A stretch of DNA of 64,000 nucleotides from a virus (lineage: Duplodnaviria; Caudoviricetes). Within the stretch, counting starts at the first letter, position 1, and each line of letters opens with the position of its first letter. The notes beneath the pieces were generated by a model. That model searched no databases. It was not told the DNA's origin and worked only from the letters and a program-made list of their open reading frames with translations. Shown here in pieces: positions 48,545-61,848 of the stretch. The stretch spans positions 1 to 64,000 of the IMG/VR virus record IMGVR_UViG_3300044557_000107. One strand, given 5' to 3'. A program made the position numbers and the translations under genes.

Positions 48545-48882
48545 CTCGCTACAATAAACTTATAAAATATTGCTAATATAAGTCTAAATTCCTGCTTCTT
48601 CCTATCCCTGTTCTACTATTAGATTAGTAATAGCTACTTAGGTTTGTATAATAGCCCACAAGCGTAAATTCCCGTTTAGCCAGCGGTACATATTTAAGTA
48701 GCAGTCTAATAAGCTAACTTGAATTTAGAAGTGTTACAGATATTCTCACTAGCGTTAATATCTCTATCTAGGTGCGAACAACAATTGGGACAATCCCACT
48801 TTCTCACACTAAGGAATCGTTGTCCCATTGTTCTAAAGGCTTCGTTATAGAAGCCACATTGTGAGCATGTTTTAGAGCTAGG
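48545..48882 (-). pseudogene. tnpB: 3' remnant of a second, different tnpB with its own omegaRNA-like tail (IS607/IS1341-like)
   Basis: PSSKTCSQCG...WDCPNC..HLDRDINASENI followed by GTACCGCTGGCTAAACGGGAATTTACGCTTGTGG...GAAGCAGGAA. Confidence 0.75.
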
Positions 48883-54419: not shown

Positions 54420-55159
54420 CCACTTCTATCTACTGTTAATTTACCTGTGTTTCCAATCTTTTGATAATTATTACATGTCCCAATAAACTTTGCAATAGAT
54501 ATAATTTCACTCCGAGTCTTATTAGATAGCTCCATTAGATCAAACCCATACAAATACTTTAAATATTGACCGATATTGTCTATTGTATAAGACCATAAAT
54601 TTGTAACTTCATGTTCTAATGTTGGAAATTGATTGATTATTTCTAATCCTCTTTCAATAACCGCTAATTGATCTTCACTAATGTAATCATAGTAGTTACT
54701 AATTAAATCTGGCGTAATTTTTTGAAAATCTCTGATACCATAGTATAGCTGGCATAGGCAATTAATTATAATAGATTCCGAACCAATAACTTTATTAAAA
54801 TTATTTAGCTGAGTAGAATTAGCTATCAAATACGACCAGACATTTAAGACCTTACTATCTAATAGTTTATCTAAATCAGGACCGCGGTTACTCTTATATG
54901 GAGTATATAAAGAGTAACAACTAAAGAGCGCATTAAAATATACTCTCGGATCCTTTGCTCCAATAACATAAGAAACCTCTTTGAACTTTTGAGCAACCTT
55001 TATGTTAGAACTAAGTTTAATCTTGTGACCAGTATAAATTATGGAGTACTCCTCAAATAGCCGCATTAAAGAATACCATTCATAATTATGTTTATCTAAT
55101 CTTAAAGAATCATTAGTAGTTAACGATGTATATTTTTTGATGTGCCCTTGATTAGTCAA
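54395..55159 (-). CDS. hypothetical replication-block protein
   Basis: 254-aa ORF between the two helicases. Confidence 0.65.
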   Translation of the reverse strand: MTNQGHIKKYTSLTTNDSLRLDKHNYEWYSLMRLFEEYSIIYTGHKIKLSSNIKVAQKFKEVSYVIGAKDPRVYFNALFSCYSLYTPYKSNRGPDLDKLLDSKVLNVWSYLIANSTQLNNFNKVIGSESIIINCLCQLYYGIRDFQKITPDLISNYYDYISEDQLAVIERGLEIINQFPTLEHEVTNLWSYTIDNIGQYLKYLYGFDLMELSNKTRSEIISIAKFIGTCNNYQKIGNTGKLTVDRSGCMIWKKH

Positions 55160-57387
55160 TTTGTCACCAGCTCCTTAACAAATACTACAGGGAACTTTTC
55201 AATTCCGTAAACCTCTTGGCGTTCTTTAGAATGCTTTTGAAGATAATCATTATTTCGATCATAGAAGTCAAATATTTTAGCCGTATTATCTCCTTCTTTC
55301 TTACGAAGCGCACGACCAATTCTCTGAACTACCTGTCTAAAGCTTTTCCCTGCTCCTGCTAATACTAGCACATTAAATCCAGATACGTCAAGTCCTTCAT
55401 CAAAGATACTTGTAGCAATAACTACTCGAAGTTTACCATCCCGAACTTGCTGAATATATTCTTTCCGGTACTTAATATCCTGAGTCCCATTTAAAAACTT
55501 ATTAGGGACTTGCTCGTCGTCTAAGTACTTTGAAAGAATTTCACCTTGTTCTGCATAATTAACAATAATCAAGATAATATTATTACCCGCATAAGCTCGC
55601 TTTGTTAAATAAGCAATCATTTTATTACGGTGCTCATTTTGAACAATCCCATACCGGTACGTATCCATCCAGTTTAGCTTAGCACCTTTTTGAGCAACCT
55701 CATCAGGTATATTAAACCCTTGTGTATTATTGATCGTATAAATTGTAGGCTTGGCAAGAATTCCTTCTTTAATTAGGCTTTCCGCATCCTTTTTTGCAAT
55801 GATTTCACCAAAAATAGCTTGAAGTCGCATCCACAATACCGGATCTCGCTGATCAACTGTGGCTGATAATCCAATATGATAGCGAGCATTATTACACTGG
55901 AGCAAGGATGTATACCATGTATCACTCTTGGTATGATGGCACTCATCTGCAAAATAAGCAACAATGGAATCTAGAAACTTATGAACAAATTGTTGCTTTT
56001 TCAGCTTGTCTCCAGCTTTGTCTTTTAAAACATCCAACCATTGGCTACTATACCGCTTAAAAAGATCCTGAACATCCTTATCAGAACCACAAGAATACAA
56101 GTCATCTTCTAAAGACTGCTTGATCCGCTGTTCAATTTTACTTTTAGGACTAAAGAACCTAATAAATGACTTAAATGCAGATAAAGCATTAGGATTGTCT
56201 ACAAACTGGGGTGCATAATTTAGAGCTATCTTTTTAAGTTCGGATTTCTTTCCGGATATTTTTAGTTTTGCCATTGGGTCTATTGCAAGTGCTGAGCTAA
56301 CCGTTGGTAGCATTACAACCATAACTTTAGATAGTTTACGTTTACTACCACCCCAGTACCCTACAGAAAGTCCAAGCCGGGTGCTTAAACGATCAATGGT
56401 TTGCTTATAAATCTCAGTTGAACCAGTAAAGAAAACAATACGTTCATCCTTTTGCAATTCTGGTAATAATTGCTTGATAAGTCCCGCGGCAATTTCCGTG
56501 TTATGATTAATGATACCATTAGCTACAAACGAATGTGTCTCGGGCATGCTTACATCATAAGTAAACTTATGACCAGCTGGGACTTTATTAATCACCTTTT
56601 CATATGCATACTGAGGGAGATCCCTAGCACTAATACCCTTGTAAGTAACTACTAAGTCATCTACCTCGATGTCCTTAGCTTGTACCCATGTTTGACCAGT
56701 GTTTCTACTTACTAGAAGCGGGTGATTTAGAGTAATCTCTTCATGCTTACCAGACTCTAACATGATATTAACAACTTCACGTTCGCCATTTCGAGTGAAC
56801 TGACCAATTTCTTCGAGCTTCCCATAACGGTTAACTAACTTTAGCGGTTTATTTGGCAGTATCGCCTTTGCATATCCGTCTAGTAGAATTCCTTGATCCT
56901 TGAAAATATCTTCAATAGTCTCATATCCATTTTCTGTAAGCAACTCTGTATCACTCGTCACACACTTTCCTGCGGCCGTTGCAAAATTCATAATACCATA
57001 GCCCTTTTCAAGACCGTTGAAGACTGCTCGCCGCTGATATGGCCGCAACGTGATTTCACTATTGGTATCCTGTAGTTTAATATCACTTGGAATATCATTA
57101 CCGTCTACAAATAAATCTGGTCGCTTGTCAAATGATTCAATACTATATCCATGGCTCATTAAAATCTGCTTAACTTTCTTAACAAGTCCTGTTGGAAACT
57201 CTTGCGTTTTAGCATTATAAAAATTAATAGAAGGATCGCCACCATGCTTAAACGCCCAGCTATACTGATAGTCCTTTGGTAATACTGAAAGTTCATCCGT
57301 TAAGATAGTTTCTATTTTCTTTTGAAGGTCCGCTTCAGTATCTTTAAATTTTATTTTAGTATATGAGGAGTCTATATATAACTTCAA
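55156..57387 (-). CDS. SF2 (UvsW-like) DNA helicase containing an intein
   Basis: LRPYQ, ATAAGK|intein|TE, DECHH, SAT, QRIGRALR. Confidence 0.93.
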   Translation of the reverse strand: MKLYIDSSYTKIKFKDTEADLQKKIETILTDELSVLPKDYQYSWAFKHGGDPSINFYNAKTQEFPTGLVKKVKQILMSHGYSIESFDKRPDLFVDGNDIPSDIKLQDTNSEITLRPYQRRAVFNGLEKGYGIMNFATAAGKCVTSDTELLTENGYETIEDIFKDQGILLDGYAKAILPNKPLKLVNRYGKLEEIGQFTRNGEREVVNIMLESGKHEEITLNHPLLVSRNTGQTWVQAKDIEVDDLVVTYKGISARDLPQYAYEKVINKVPAGHKFTYDVSMPETHSFVANGIINHNTEIAAGLIKQLLPELQKDERIVFFTGSTEIYKQTIDRLSTRLGLSVGYWGGSKRKLSKVMVVMLPTVSSALAIDPMAKLKISGKKSELKKIALNYAPQFVDNPNALSAFKSFIRFFSPKSKIEQRIKQSLEDDLYSCGSDKDVQDLFKRYSSQWLDVLKDKAGDKLKKQQFVHKFLDSIVAYFADECHHTKSDTWYTSLLQCNNARYHIGLSATVDQRDPVLWMRLQAIFGEIIAKKDAESLIKEGILAKPTIYTINNTQGFNIPDEVAQKGAKLNWMDTYRYGIVQNEHRNKMIAYLTKRAYAGNNIILIIVNYAEQGEILSKYLDDEQVPNKFLNGTQDIKYRKEYIQQVRDGKLRVVIATSIFDEGLDVSGFNVLVLAGAGKSFRQVVQRIGRALRKKEGDNTAKIFDFYDRNNDYLQKHSKERQEVYGIEKFPVVFVKELVTN
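56500..56964 (-). mobile_element. 155-aa mini-intein in the helicase Walker A motif
   Basis: Starts CVTSDT, block B TLNHPLL, ends FVANGIINHN followed by Thr; no homing endonuclease motifs. Confidence 0.92.
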
Positions 57388-57465
57388 AATTACACCTTCT
57401 AAATTTATTTTTTAAAATCTTTGCTAATTGACTTGTTATTCTGTTCTACTATGATATAATGATAG

Positions 57466-58124
57466 TACATATTTAAAAGAATAGCAAAAGAGTAATACGT
57501 TTTTGGCATACGTTACAATGTTGGGTCGCACCCACTAGCAAAAGGACTGGTTCATCTCTCGAGTCGCTCTCTGAATTAACCCATGAGAATATAGTAGTAT
57601 TCTTGCAGTCAACAACGGAATACCAATCCATCAGGATGAAAAACCCTGTAAAAGAGCGGGGGTAGCCTGTAGAGACTACCATGGAAACCATGAATTTAGT
57701 TATCATTCCCCAGATTGTAGTCTAGTGGGTTACACGAGTTACCACTTAAATAACAACTCACTACAACTGGTTGCGTGGGCATGGAGAGCATAATGAATGC
57801 CGTAATTCTTGACGATGTAAGCTAATTAATTGCTATTGTTGCAGTTCTTTAGTTAATAATTATTACATCTTAAATTACTTACGGGTGTTATCTGAGATAC
57901 TATCTTAAGAGACATATTAGCCTGCACTAGGTTAAGTGTCTTTTGAGATACTACAAGCACTAAAATAAAGGTTCTTAAGGTGATTATAGTCCATAAAATA
58001 TCCTAATAGTTCCTTTAAGGTACTAAAGTATCTAATATTGACAATTATAGTTTGCTTAAAAGTACATAATATTTATTCATAGAAATGAATATAAAAGAGG
58101 ACTCTAATATAGAAGTCCTCTTTT
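57466..58124 (+). ncRNA. candidate large structured RNA (~500-650 nt)
   Basis: Plus-strand promoter 57428-57460, terminator 58093-58124, many stems including long-range and pseudoknot pairings; G-U pairs favour the plus strand. Confidence 0.55.
58093..58124. terminator. bidirectional intrinsic terminator
   Basis: AAAAGAGGACT-N10-AGTCCTCTTTT. Confidence 0.85.
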
Positions 58125-58127
58125 ACT

Positions 58128-58331
58128 TTAATTGATATTATTAAGTTGGTCCTTAAGGTCTTGCTTAAGTTTCTTAACTTCTTCTAGTTCTTTATGAAGT
58201 TCTTGAGACTCTTTAATAATAGTATGCTTAGCTTTCCAAAGATCTTGGTCATGCTTTGTTGGAACATGGATAAAGGCAATTGCTCTTCCATGCTTATTAT
58301 ACTGTTTCTCCTGATATCCCATACATACCAC
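58128..58331 (-). CDS. small coiled-coil protein at the end of the tail operon
   Basis: Follows the adsorption protein, as in Twort-like phages. Confidence 0.65.
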   Translation of the reverse strand: MVCMGYQEKQYNKHGRAIAFIHVPTKHDQDLWKAKHTIIKESQELHKELEEVKKLKQDLKDQLNNIN

Positions 58332-58344
58332 ACTCCGTGTTACT

Positions 58345-61300
58345 TTATTCCTGTGTCATGATGCATTGAAGTGCTTTTACCCGCGGACGTTCATAACTGT
58401 TAGATGTGGATAAGTCTAAACGTATCTTGAATTGCTTACTCCAGTTATCGGTATTATCACCAGTTGCGGTGGTTTGAGTATAAGATACACCTGTCCAATC
58501 TCCTTGAGTAGTCGTTACAGGGTTCGCTGTAAATGCCGTCCATGTAGTACCACCATCCGTACTGTATTTTGGAACAACATTAGCAGTTGAAGGAGTTATC
58601 TGACCATACGTTACCTTTAGAGTATTATATGGACTTGCTGTCATATCAACATTGAGACCAATGTAGGAACCCGAAAGTCCATGCAAGAAAGCACCAAGGG
58701 ATAGATCTTCAGTACTCAGTAGTGGTGAAGAATACATAGAGGCATCAAAGGTTGCTTTTAATTGGAGTTGCTTAATTAGTCCATTTGCTTGAACTAACGT
58801 ATAATTTGATAATGCTATCCAAGGCAACGTTGTAATATCAGTATTAGATGCTGTACTAGAATAGATTGCGCGGTAGTACCAAGTAGCACCCGTATTATTT
58901 GGTGTTAAGTAAGTACTTAACAAGAGAAGACTATCTAAGTTAACGGTCATAGGCTTAAATAGAATAGTGGCTGATGAGTTATATTGAGCCGCGTAGATAT
59001 TAAACTTCAAATCAGAAGTTTGTTGCTCAGACCATGTATAGGCGTTAGAAGATTCAAACATCATTCCTGGAGTATAAGCATTCTGATTAAGTGTCCCTAC
59101 GTTGCCAATTAATGTTTCTCCTTGTTTAGCATAGTAAACGGAGTAATCATCAGAATTTGCTAATATTACGATACAATATTGTGTACCAGAGTCTAATCGG
59201 ATCATATCGTCAAAAGATACTTTAGTTTCTACAGAAGCATCTGATGATACACTAACTTGACTAGATGACAGAATTGCAGTTCCATAGATGGTTTCATTAG
59301 GAAATCCTGAAGTCATTCCACGTACTTGAACTTTAACACTGTCTGTGTTAGACTTAGAAGCGAAATAGAGTCCTAAGGACGTCATGTTGTAATACGTAGT
59401 AGGAACAAATGACTGAGCTAGAGGATCTGTAAAATGTGCGGTTACATAAGTCTTAAAGATAATATCTTCGACAGTCTTTTTAATCCCTTGAGCTTCATAA
59501 GGAGCCTCAGCAGAATCTGCATCATTGGTGAAGACAACTTCACGGGTACCACAAGGAACATTAGCTGGGATAACAAAAGTTCCTTGATATGATCCATCAG
59601 CGGCTACTTGAACTTGACCAGAACTATTAGCGGCGTTATAACCAGAACCGGCGGTAATTGGACAAGTTATTCCATAAAAAGTGATATAGAATCCCGTTGC
59701 ATTAGGAGTTAATCCAGTAGCTGAAAATGATAATGTACGAGAGCGAATATACTGTTCCATGGATTCGGTAGTCTGAGTACCACCAGCACTTAAAACAGTT
59801 CCTTGAAGATCTTGAATACCAAGGTTTGTTCCTTCTGTAAATTCAGTCCAGTTACCATTAACATAACTACTTGAATAAGAACTATTTGCAGTATTCCAAG
59901 TAGCATTTTGGACATACCATTCGGCATCTGATGAGTTTATATATCCCCCATGTTGCCACCAGCGATCAAGATAAATTGTCTTATACTGGTCTTCAGTAAC
60001 GGTAACATTGTCAGTATCAATCCAGTTATCAGAACTTGGTGTTAATACTAGCTTACCTTCTCGGGCTTGGTCATATGGATTGACATTTATTGTACTAGTA
60101 GCTTGAGTTTGCTTAATTACTGCGGTTTCCGTAAAGGGTGCCGTAATTAAAGTACTCGTTGTATCTAAGTTGGACTGAGTTAAGTCAAGTTCCGGAGTAA
60201 CATCGACTTGTGCAGTATACGGAAGAGTTAATTCTGCGTCATCGAAGCTCATAGCCGCATCCCAAATAGGATTAGTAGTATCTGCTTTGTCTAGGCTAAT
60301 AAAGCCATCAGAAAATACGCCTCGAAGACTTGTTGGATCTGTTGCATTATAAGATGCTTTATCAAGCATATTAATAGCTTCATTATACTCAATATTGTCT
60401 ACTCGGGTCTTTAGCTTTCCTAAGTCACTCATAGTTAAATTAGAGGTTACATAGACGTTAGAAGAACTATTAGATGAATTAGGGTATAATTCTACATACC
60501 CAATTTGAAGTACCGTACTATCAACTAAGTTAGGTGCCGCAACAGTATCTGCATTAGCTGGAGTCCCTGTATGAACAGTTAAGTTACCATCTTTATCAAT
60601 TGTGATAAGATCTTTACGGTATAAGTAGTATTCGTAAGTAGTCTGAATTAAGCTATTACTAATTAAGACACCACCTGTACTATCACCGGATCCTACAATT
60701 CCCATACCGGTAAAGTCAATATAAGTAACAGCCAAATCACCGGTTCCAGTAACGACCTTGTAGTCTGTATTTAAGACTAATGTTTTGTTGTATACATACG
60801 TAACCCGATAAGAAGTACCCGCAGTAGGATAACTTCCAGAAGCCTTCCAAGTAATACTAGTGTGATCGTTAGTGTAGTCGGTTCCAGCAGTATAAGTAAC
60901 ACCACTGGTACCTTCCGTAAATACTTTTTCGACGGTCAAGACATTACTATCGGGGAAAGTATCAGTTCCCCCAACAGTAGCTCCCCGAGTCATCGTTACA
61001 GTTTTACGAACCTGAGCTACAACGGTATCTACAGATTTAACTGCGGGATAGCTTAAATTGTACTTATAGGTTCCTGTAGTGTAGTAATTTCCTTCAGACT
61101 GTTCGGTAGCTGTAGTTAATGATTTATCTACAGCAATACGTGTAGGGTATTTCTTCTTTACTGGGTATCCTAACACGTAGGCATTTCCTGAATCTACGAT
61201 AATATCCACTTTATTTGTATTAGATGCGTTTTGTGCGGTGCTTAATCCAAATCCATTAGTACCTGAGCGGAAACTACCATTAGTATCATAACTCGTATTA

Positions 61301-61848
61301 GCAATCAGTTCTTGGACCTTACTAAGTTCCGTACTAATATTATTATTAACTAAAACACCGTCTTTAAACGTATAAATAGTTGCCGCGGTAGAATCATTTG
61401 CGACAAGACTAACAGTCTCTTGAAGTCGATCAGCCCCTAGAGACTGGTAAGCATCGGTACCAACTGCGGGATTCTTTAAACTAGGATCATCGTCTGCTGT
61501 AATGATGCTTTGAATTAATTTAACGCCTAGAGTTTCTGTTCCAGCTCCGGTGATTGACACCGTTTGTTCTGGAAAGTGACGACGCATGCCTCCAAGATAA
61601 ACGTCGCCTTCAGATACGGTAATGCTATTTCCAGATTGGGTATATCCCATTCCAGACTGTTTATCACCATCCGACATAACTGAATCTCCAACACCTTTAA
61701 TAGCATAATGGAGTTCAGATTGCATTTCATTTAATTCAGATGCTGATAGTTGTCGGTCAACGTTAAATAAAACCATGGTTCGATTATTACTAGAGTCATA
61801 ACGATCATAGTAAGGACTAACAGTTAAGTCAATGGTTGTGTCTGCCAA
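58345..61848 (-). CDS. adsorption-associated baseplate/tail protein (DUF4815-like)
   Basis: SPYYDRYD...VLFN.DR.L.ASELNEMQS, FSDGF, NVNPY, DPLAQSF. Confidence 0.88.
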   Translation of the reverse strand: MADTTIDLTVSPYYDRYDSSNNRTMVLFNVDRQLSASELNEMQSELHYAIKGVGDSVMSDGDKQSGMGYTQSGNSITVSEGDVYLGGMRRHFPEQTVSITGAGTETLGVKLIQSIITADDDPSLKNPAVGTDAYQSLGADRLQETVSLVANDSTAATIYTFKDGVLVNNNISTELSKVQELIANTSYDTNGSFRSGTNGFGLSTAQNASNTNKVDIIVDSGNAYVLGYPVKKKYPTRIAVDKSLTTATEQSEGNYYTTGTYKYNLSYPAVKSVDTVVAQVRKTVTMTRGATVGGTDTFPDSNVLTVEKVFTEGTSGVTYTAGTDYTNDHTSITWKASGSYPTAGTSYRVTYVYNKTLVLNTDYKVVTGTGDLAVTYIDFTGMGIVGSGDSTGGVLISNSLIQTTYEYYLYRKDLITIDKDGNLTVHTGTPANADTVAAPNLVDSTVLQIGYVELYPNSSNSSSNVYVTSNLTMSDLGKLKTRVDNIEYNEAINMLDKASYNATDPTSLRGVFSDGFISLDKADTTNPIWDAAMSFDDAELTLPYTAQVDVTPELDLTQSNLDTTSTLITAPFTETAVIKQTQATSTINVNPYDQAREGKLVLTPSSDNWIDTDNVTVTEDQYKTIYLDRWWQHGGYINSSDAEWYVQNATWNTANSSYSSSYVNGNWTEFTEGTNLGIQDLQGTVLSAGGTQTTESMEQYIRSRTLSFSATGLTPNATGFYITFYGITCPITAGSGYNAANSSGQVQVAADGSYQGTFVIPANVPCGTREVVFTNDADSAEAPYEAQGIKKTVEDIIFKTYVTAHFTDPLAQSFVPTTYYNMTSLGLYFASKSNTDSVKVQVRGMTSGFPNETIYGTAILSSSQVSVSSDASVETKVSFDDMIRLDSGTQYCIVILANSDDYSVYYAKQGETLIGNVGTLNQNAYTPGMMFESSNAYTWSEQQTSDLKFNIYAAQYNSSATILFKPMTVNLDSLLLLSTYLTPNNTGATWYYRAIYSSTASNTDITTLPWIALSNYTLVQANGLIKQLQLKATFDASMYSSPLLSTEDLSLGAFLHGLSGSYIGLNVDMTASPYNTLKVTYGQITPSTANVVPKYSTDGGTTWTAFTANPVTTTQGDWTGVSYTQTTATGDNTDNWSKQFKIRLDLSTSNSYERPRVKALQCIMTQE

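Follow-up and report, generated by a model that had tools for sequence, protein, structure and literature searches.

The question raised by this locus is what is encoded in a gap of 740 bp (57388–58127) that separates the tail module of a phage from a helicase with an intein, with all the genes around it on the minus strand. The window, that is, the whole stretch of 64,000 nucleotides analysed here, is the first 64 kb of a source record of 139,820 bp with direct terminal repeats and a GC content of 36%; among named phages, those closest to it are Herelleviridae of Lactobacillus, Listeria and Enterococcus, which share only ~43% protein identity with it. An earlier note, made from the letters of the DNA, had proposed that the gap encodes a large, pseudoknotted RNA on the plus strand, either a member of a class such as ROOL and GOLLD or a new one, with a role in replication priming as an alternative. 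The genes adjoining the gap are the following:

55156–57387, minus strand: superfamily-2 DNA helicase with intein (Pfam Helicase_C, ResIII, Intein_splicing; PHROG 16), first gene of the replication module
58128–58331, minus strand: 67-aa protein (PHROG 1074), last gene after the DUF4815 tail protein
58345–61848, minus strand: DUF4815 tail or receptor-binding protein, 1167 aa

Beyond the superfamily-2 helicase, further minus-strand genes encode a 254-aa protein and a DnaB-like helicase; the replication module beside the gap comprises both helicases and nuclease/SbcC-like genes. The intein of the helicase corresponds to residues 150–296 (Pfam Intein_splicing). Along the record, the four-fold-site GC skew of the top strand is ~−0.1 over 0–56 kb and ~+0.2 over 56–112 kb, with the gene strand unchanged.

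The gap contains no credible ORF, in agreement with the earlier reading. On the plus strand no ORF of at least 30 aa was found, and frame 1 alone has 28 stops; the longest ORF on the minus strand has 77 aa, no family match and a poor ribosome-binding context. ARAGORN revealed no tRNA or tmRNA in 57000–58500. As for base composition, the gap holds a 42% GC island flanked by two of the most AT-rich 250-bp windows of the 36% GC genome; these flanks are among the eight most AT-rich such windows, yet they are no outliers.

We propose, with a probability of about 0.6, that the gap functions as a gene in its own right, whose product is a large structured non-coding RNA; this RNA would act in trans through its shape and would be restricted to this lineage. 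The parts of the predicted unit, in 5' to 3' order, are:

57433–57460, plus strand: sigma-A-type promoter, −35 TTGTTA (57433–57438), 16-nt spacer, extended −10 TGATATAAT (57452–57460); 10/12 match, TG present
57467–58127, plus strand: predicted primary transcript of ~660 nt without ORF, bounded by promoter and terminator; plus-strand fold z −6.0
57467–57504, plus strand: fast-evolving 5' leader (the 5' flank, 57388–57516, varies at 13/129 sites)
57505–57801, plus strand: Domain 1 (D1), multibranch, ~297 nt, ~42% GC; minimum free energy (MFE) and RNAalifold folds agree; almost invariant among relatives
57802–57878, plus strand: Domain 2 (D2), bulged hairpin of 77 nt; z −3.7 on the plus versus −1.6 on the minus strand
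57884–57961, plus strand: Domain 3 (D3), long hairpin with a 23-bp stem (57901–57950) and five G-U pairs; z −5.2 on the plus versus −0.7 on the minus strand
57962–58091, plus strand: fast-evolving AT-rich 3' tail with hairpins at 57966–58017, 58018–58033, 58044–58069 and 58074–58091
58092–58125, both strands: bidirectional intrinsic terminator with a 12+3 bp stem and a U-rich tail on either strand, which the tail operon of the minus strand shares

All the sequence features named in the earlier note were found where it had placed them, including TTGACT (57428), TATGAT (57450), TGATATAAT (57452–57460) and the terminator hairpin (58092–58125). The promoter that it had drawn from these elements was retained in part: the extended −10 TGATATAAT is conserved, whereas the overlapping alternative, TTGACT (57428)-16-TATGAT (57450), is destroyed in three relatives. 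In TTGTTA-16-TGnTATAAT the −35, the TG and the TATAAT are invariant across all relatives; positions 57431, 57432, 57446, 57447 and 57454 vary, and 57454, the sole change inside the motif, falls on the free 'n'. At the other end, the tip of the terminator (58104–58113) is exactly reverse-complemented in two relatives, L088 and L089 (CTCTAATATAGAAG vs CTTCTATATTAGAG), and the stem is kept on both strands. A large structured phage ncRNA can be defined operationally as a promoter-to-terminator unit with no ORF and with a conserved fold; of these features, a predicted promoter and terminator of its own and the lack of an ORF were found at this stage.

From this organisation, host sigma-A RNA polymerase would start at ~57467, the position predicted from the extended −10 promoter; transcription would then run against both neighbouring operons and stop at the bidirectional terminator (58092–58125), producing an RNA of ~660 nt. 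Early expression would be expected because the promoter is of the sigma-A type. In SPO1-type phages, early expression occurs from sigma-A-type promoters.

The same organisation could also be explained by a cis-acting regulatory or insulating region without any RNA functioning in trans, in which divergent, overlapping promoters control the helicase operon, and the convergent plus-strand transcript blocks read-through from the tail genes or forms dsRNA with the late transcript of the tail operon. In favour of this, a promoter-like site on the minus strand (TTGCTA-17-TATCAT, 57487–57459) overlaps the −10 box of the plus strand, the terminator is shared and bidirectional, and the unit is located exactly between two temporal modules. 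However, promoter-like sites are not commoner in the region than in shuffled sequences (6 vs 6.8), and, on the whole of the evidence, we regard a purely cis-acting role as improbable.

The conservation of the gap was evaluated among close relatives of the phage. When the helicase was searched against 5.8 billion proteins, a single 90% cluster was obtained, beyond which no protein was more than 56% identical. Six contigs from independent metagenomes (L006, L088, L089, L090, L091 and L096) carry the gap and are 96–100% identical to the window: L090 is identical to it, and the other five are distinct (96–99% identical). The gap region is present in all the close relatives examined and, with the window included, the element is known from six distinct sequences only, 96–100% identical. 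Variable sites were counted over the window and four distinct relatives (five contigs including the identical L090, with L096 left out):

57388–57516, 5' flank: 13/129 variable sites
57517–57953, core: 7/437 variable sites (1.6%)
57954–58091, 3' flank: 30/138 variable sites
Both non-coding flanks: 43/267 variable sites (16%), versus core p = 5e-13
Third codon positions of three neighbouring genes: 127/1472 variable sites (8.6%), versus core p = 1.5e-8
Codon positions 1 and 2 of the neighbouring genes: 34/2945 variable sites, versus core not significant

When L096 was added, 9/437 sites of the core were variable. In the flanks, the rate of change equals or exceeds the synonymous one, while the core lies five-fold below it. 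Judging from these substitution counts, the 437-nt core is under purifying selection as strong as that on the non-synonymous sites of essential replication genes. This selection signal is the strongest result for the element, and it indicates that the gap is a real, constrained non-coding element.

The promoter region is variable, yet 437 nt well downstream of it are strongly constrained, and neither insulation nor transcriptional interference would need that. An element acting at the DNA level (a protein-binding, packaging or recombination site), or the remnant of a decaying gene or mobile element, in both cases without RNA function, could be invoked considering that the slot is variable among Herelleviridae (SAC12B, P100, Lbab1) and that the genome is rich in TnpB elements. 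Nevertheless, decay is incompatible with a conservation five-fold below the synonymous rate; since the core is constrained to this extent, a decaying remnant is excluded. Moreover, the gap holds no protein remnant, and specifically none of the SAC12B 'replication protein' or of the ORF found in the corresponding slot of L007, a more distant relative (tblastn), no copy of the element exists elsewhere in the genome, and 437 contiguous constrained bases far exceed what a binding site needs. Overall, we consider an explanation at the level of DNA very improbable.

In the tail region the relatives differ more: nucleotide identity among them is ~94.6% beyond 62.1 kb, so that this region is variable in otherwise near-identical phages. 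The DUF4815 protein has 1167 aa in the window, L088 and L090, and 1143 aa in L006 and L089. The inteins of the relatives' helicases differ in size and occur with or without a LAGLIDADG domain, in forms of 743, 784, 848 and ~1000 aa.

The folding excess of the region depends on the strand. The plus strand of 57465–58127 folds at −177 kcal/mol (z −6.0), and the minus strand at −156.5 kcal/mol (z −3.9). The predicted structural core (57505–57961), almost invariant among relatives, consists of the multibranch domain of 297 nt and, after it, two long hairpins rich in G-U. D1 is closed by the helices 57505–57515/57791–57801, 57566–57572/57783–57789 and 57580–57585/57774–57779, with pair probabilities of 0.8–0.99. 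Its folding excess is modest (z −2.4 on the plus vs −1.8 on the minus strand) and this best-conserved part is yet without strand preference; because the two values are similar, the strand cannot be read from D1 alone. Instead, in D2 and D3 the folding excess is significant only on the plus strand. The 57901–57950 hairpin of D3, described earlier as having four G-U pairs as its only non-Watson-Crick pairs on the plus strand, is indeed present with 23 bp, but the G-U pairs are five.

The G-U pairs offer a further indication of strand, since the core has ~19 of them, and each would become a C-A mismatch if the minus strand were read. Five of the eight substitutions in core helices (57705, 57805, 57906, 57954 and 57958) preserve the pair via G-U, on the plus strand only, when scored on a consensus fold that was derived from the same six distinct sequences as the substitutions themselves. 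In D2, 57805 A>G replaces A-U by G-U, a pair that exists only on the plus strand; in D3, pairs are preserved by 57906 U>C (G-U to G-C) and by 57954 C>U and 57958 C>U (both G-C to G-U). The minus strand would tolerate just one of the eight (57526). On the other hand, 57761 C>A breaks a predicted core pair, and two further core substitutions break loop-closing pairs. Double changes were observed in four pairs, all in the 3' hairpins or the terminator, and outside the terminator compensatory double changes occur only in the 3' tail (helices 22 and 23); the core hardly varies, and none of its pairs is changed on both sides. The leader of ~40 nt and the AT-rich tail of ~130 nt drift freely, with the hairpins of the tail partly kept by compensatory changes. 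The first of these hairpins tolerates indels, because L091 carries a 9-nt insertion at window position 57967 (L091:~437–445), together with a cluster of changes in the same hairpin.

The preference for the plus strand speaks against a cis-acting region and, since the folding excess is on this strand, the core is not a leader of the helicase. Hairpins that are paired only by virtue of G-U would be mismatched as DNA cruciforms, against a role at the DNA level. Both the cis-regulatory and the DNA-level readings fit the extent and the strand bias of the constraint poorly.

The pseudoknots attributed to the RNA are not supported. The stems on which they had been based were confirmed as sequence matches (GACTG 57545/CAGTC 57606, CGCTCT 57565/AGAGCG 57653 and TTGTAGT 57715/ACTACAA 57760), and the inverted pair ACCCACTAG (57530)/CTAGTGGGT (57722) is located as claimed. 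However, the long-range pairings compete with nested helices of the MFE and consensus folds, are singly at chance level and fall in columns that never vary. Perfect 9-nt inverted repeats in the region number 6, against 2.9 expected, and 24 of 200 shuffles reach as many. By contrast, four findings support the proposal of a new large plus-strand ncRNA: the selection on the core, the strand-specific fold, the G-U substitutions, and the conserved promoter with the terminator.

The assignment to ROOL, GOLLD or a similar class was not borne out. Rfam 15 was searched by cmscan over the whole window, giving no matches at the gathering score, and over the rest of the genome, where only 4 tRNAs were found. 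At E ≤10, the region 57300–58250 gave five noise matches, terminator-like (sxy, rli40, RefA9) and none of them to ROOL or GOLLD. ROOL (RF03087) had no covariance-model match in the window, the gap or the rest of the genome, and neither had GOLLD (RF02032), whose usual adjacency to tRNA genes is also absent, with no tRNA in 57000–58500. OLE, group I/II introns, known self-cleaving ribozymes, tmRNA, RNase P and 6S had no Rfam 15 matches either; an intron was discarded also in view of the flanking genes, which are complete and on the opposite strand. An omega-RNA or mini-element of the TnpB/IS200-IS605 type was rejected as well, as the seven TnpB-type matches of the genome are all outside the gap, which contains no tnpB remnant, and the window RNA has no similarity to any of the TnpB loci and omega-RNA cassettes of the same genome (BLAST, covariance models); nor were element ends recognisable in the gap region, which all relatives carry. 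The known families are thus ruled out at the level that Rfam covariance models can detect.

Homologues were sought with several approaches. Two covariance models built from the core, R1 (57617–57770) and R2 (57802–57961), had no match in L007, in 22 further loci or at any other place in the phage's own genome, in which BLAST likewise revealed no second copy. No homologue was detected by blastn in 50,697 phage records or in plasmid collections, by nhmmer in 80 Herelleviridae helicase loci, or by 20-mer scans of viral contigs and genome contigs. The 20-mer scan of metagenomes gave two matches, in L092 (24 nt) and L093 (20 nt), with no similarity beyond them; the former (L092:1164–1187) equals window 57603–57626 exactly, lies inside a methyltransferase-like ORF of an unrelated contig and was judged to be due to chance. 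On these grounds, the element is most likely a new, lineage-restricted large ncRNA that belongs to no catalogued family.

The closest known systems are in the same virus family. Phage K (Kayvirus, Herelleviridae) produces two abundant lncRNAs, lnc001 and lnc002, of 635 and 1154 nt, and at least one of them has an early promoter of its own (PMC9241854); in Listeria phage CKA15, non-coding regions with high transcription have been described (PMC12282133). The likeness lies in RNAs of several hundred nucleotides without ORF, with a separate host-type early promoter for at least one of them. There are, however, three differences: no sequence similarity was found (blastn, 50,697 phage records); those RNAs are beside tRNA genes in the early region, whereas the window unit is between the tail and replication modules; and expression was measured there, while here it is predicted from sequence. 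Large ornate RNAs are represented by ROOL and GOLLD of Lactobacillales and their phages, which form RNA-only cages (Kretsch et al., bioRxiv 10.1101/2024.12.08.627333 / PMC12286853). The window RNA resembles them in size class (~0.5–0.8 kb), in being phage-borne and a stand-alone transcription unit, and in its multi-domain fold, predicted here; it differs in having no covariance-model match even at E ≤10 and in not being beside tRNA genes.

The principal competitor of the trans-acting RNA is an origin-associated transcript, in which transcription into the AT-rich zone activates or primes the replication of the phage DNA. Models for this are ColE1 RNA II, whose folded transcript becomes the primer, and the origins of T4 (oriF/oriG R-loops) and T7, which depend on promoters. 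As in these systems, a promoter-driven RNA of ~550–650 nt would be made next to replication functions and enter AT-rich DNA: the unit adjoins the replication module, its RNA has about the length of RNA II and runs into sequence of 20–28% GC, and GAGATACT occurs twice in direct and once in inverted orientation around D3. In addition, the four-fold-site GC skew flips from −0.16 in the 48–56 kb bin to +0.24 in the 56–64 kb bin, with the genes all on the minus strand. The flip could mark a change of replication direction. It falls, however, where the replication genes give way to the structural ones, and codon usage explains it equally well because the structural genes use more C-ending codons (0.13–0.14 vs 0.09–0.10). 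In contrast with the models, the predicted RNA stops at an intrinsic terminator, and the AT-rich region is free of constraint: it is the least conserved part, whereas the structured core is the constrained one. Moreover, no iteron arrays are present, and the origins proposed for phage K and CKA15 lie elsewhere in those genomes, in AT-rich regions that are not transcribed. We therefore judge the replication-priming alternative to be weak, and an origin transcript to be unlikely.

At the same position in other phages, a comparable gene-free gap was found, among 38 Herelleviridae loci, only in L007/L024 (the same contig), in which the helicase is 56% identical. The unit in this contig is as follows:

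L007:3982–5044, minus strand of the locus: counterpart of the window unit in slot and orientation, with a TTGCGT-17-TGCTATAAT extended −10 promoter, ~900 nt without ORF and a bidirectional terminator

This gap directly follows the bidirectional terminator of the small gene and is predicted to form a multibranch domain of ~280 nt and long hairpins, with a strand-specific folding excess (z −4.1 and −4.95 vs −1.7 and −0.8); it has no Rfam match. No homology to the window RNA was detected: the opposite strand shares more k-mers with it than the same strand does, covariance-model scores are at background, and the structure conservation index is 0.18, compared with 0.12 for shuffles and a maximum of 0.20 among them. 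One local alignment to the window RNA (z ~3.6) was rejected as being in AT-rich sequence and structurally inconsistent. The unit of L007 is a positional and architectural parallel only, and homology with the window RNA is not claimed. In another locus, L032, an apparent gap turned out to be a small gene plus an ordinary intergenic region. Elsewhere the slot contains a reverse-strand 'replication protein' gene (SAC12B), extra small genes (P100) or nothing (Lbab1). Because other members of the family fill the slot differently, the unit behaves like a moron-type insert.

The presence of an unrelated-looking RNA unit in the same slot of a distant relative hints that the position beside the replication genes may matter. 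A tentative extension of this observation is that the slot could house an uncatalogued, fast-evolving class of large (0.65–0.9 kb), early-transcribed structured RNAs, of which the window and L007 units would be members that diverged beyond recognition, having a dedicated role in infection, such as replication control or priming, RNA-only assembly or a protein sponge. We consider this possible, though doubtful at present.

An antisense action of the RNA is unlikely because its complementary matches in the rest of the genome do not rise above chance: the best candidate target in trans matches at 18/19 nt (E 0.07) in variable positions, and the others are 12–13-mers at chance level. The RNA would rather act in trans by its shape, binding a phage or host protein or self-assembling in the manner of ROOL and GOLLD. 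Equipped with a promoter and a terminator of its own, and restricted to this lineage, it would be comparable to a phage 'moron' in a slot that other Herelleviridae fill otherwise.

In bacteria and phages, RNAs that are both large and structured are a rarity; the functions of ROOL, GOLLD, OLE and raiA are mostly unknown, and their architectures have recently been found to be unusual. The present element adds a candidate with an unusually clear selection signal, namely a 437-nt non-coding core constrained like non-synonymous sites. The unit is small and separable and would suit deletion and complementation experiments if the host is culturable; the phage itself recurs in at least six independent metagenomes. 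Cheese-rind or food samples in which it occurs are ERR3150486, ERR4073753, SRR16378546, SRR22388074, ERZ795006 and ERZ28616196.

A last observation concerns the TnpB-type genes of this phage. Seven TnpB/Cas12f zinc-ribbon matches are distributed over the genome, at 10.6, 48.7, 75.7, 110.1, 122.1, 129.9 and 132.3 kb; six of them are in open frames of 350–487 aa, plus a 62-aa fragment (window 48739–48879). This number of genes for RNA-guided nucleases is unusually high for one phage.
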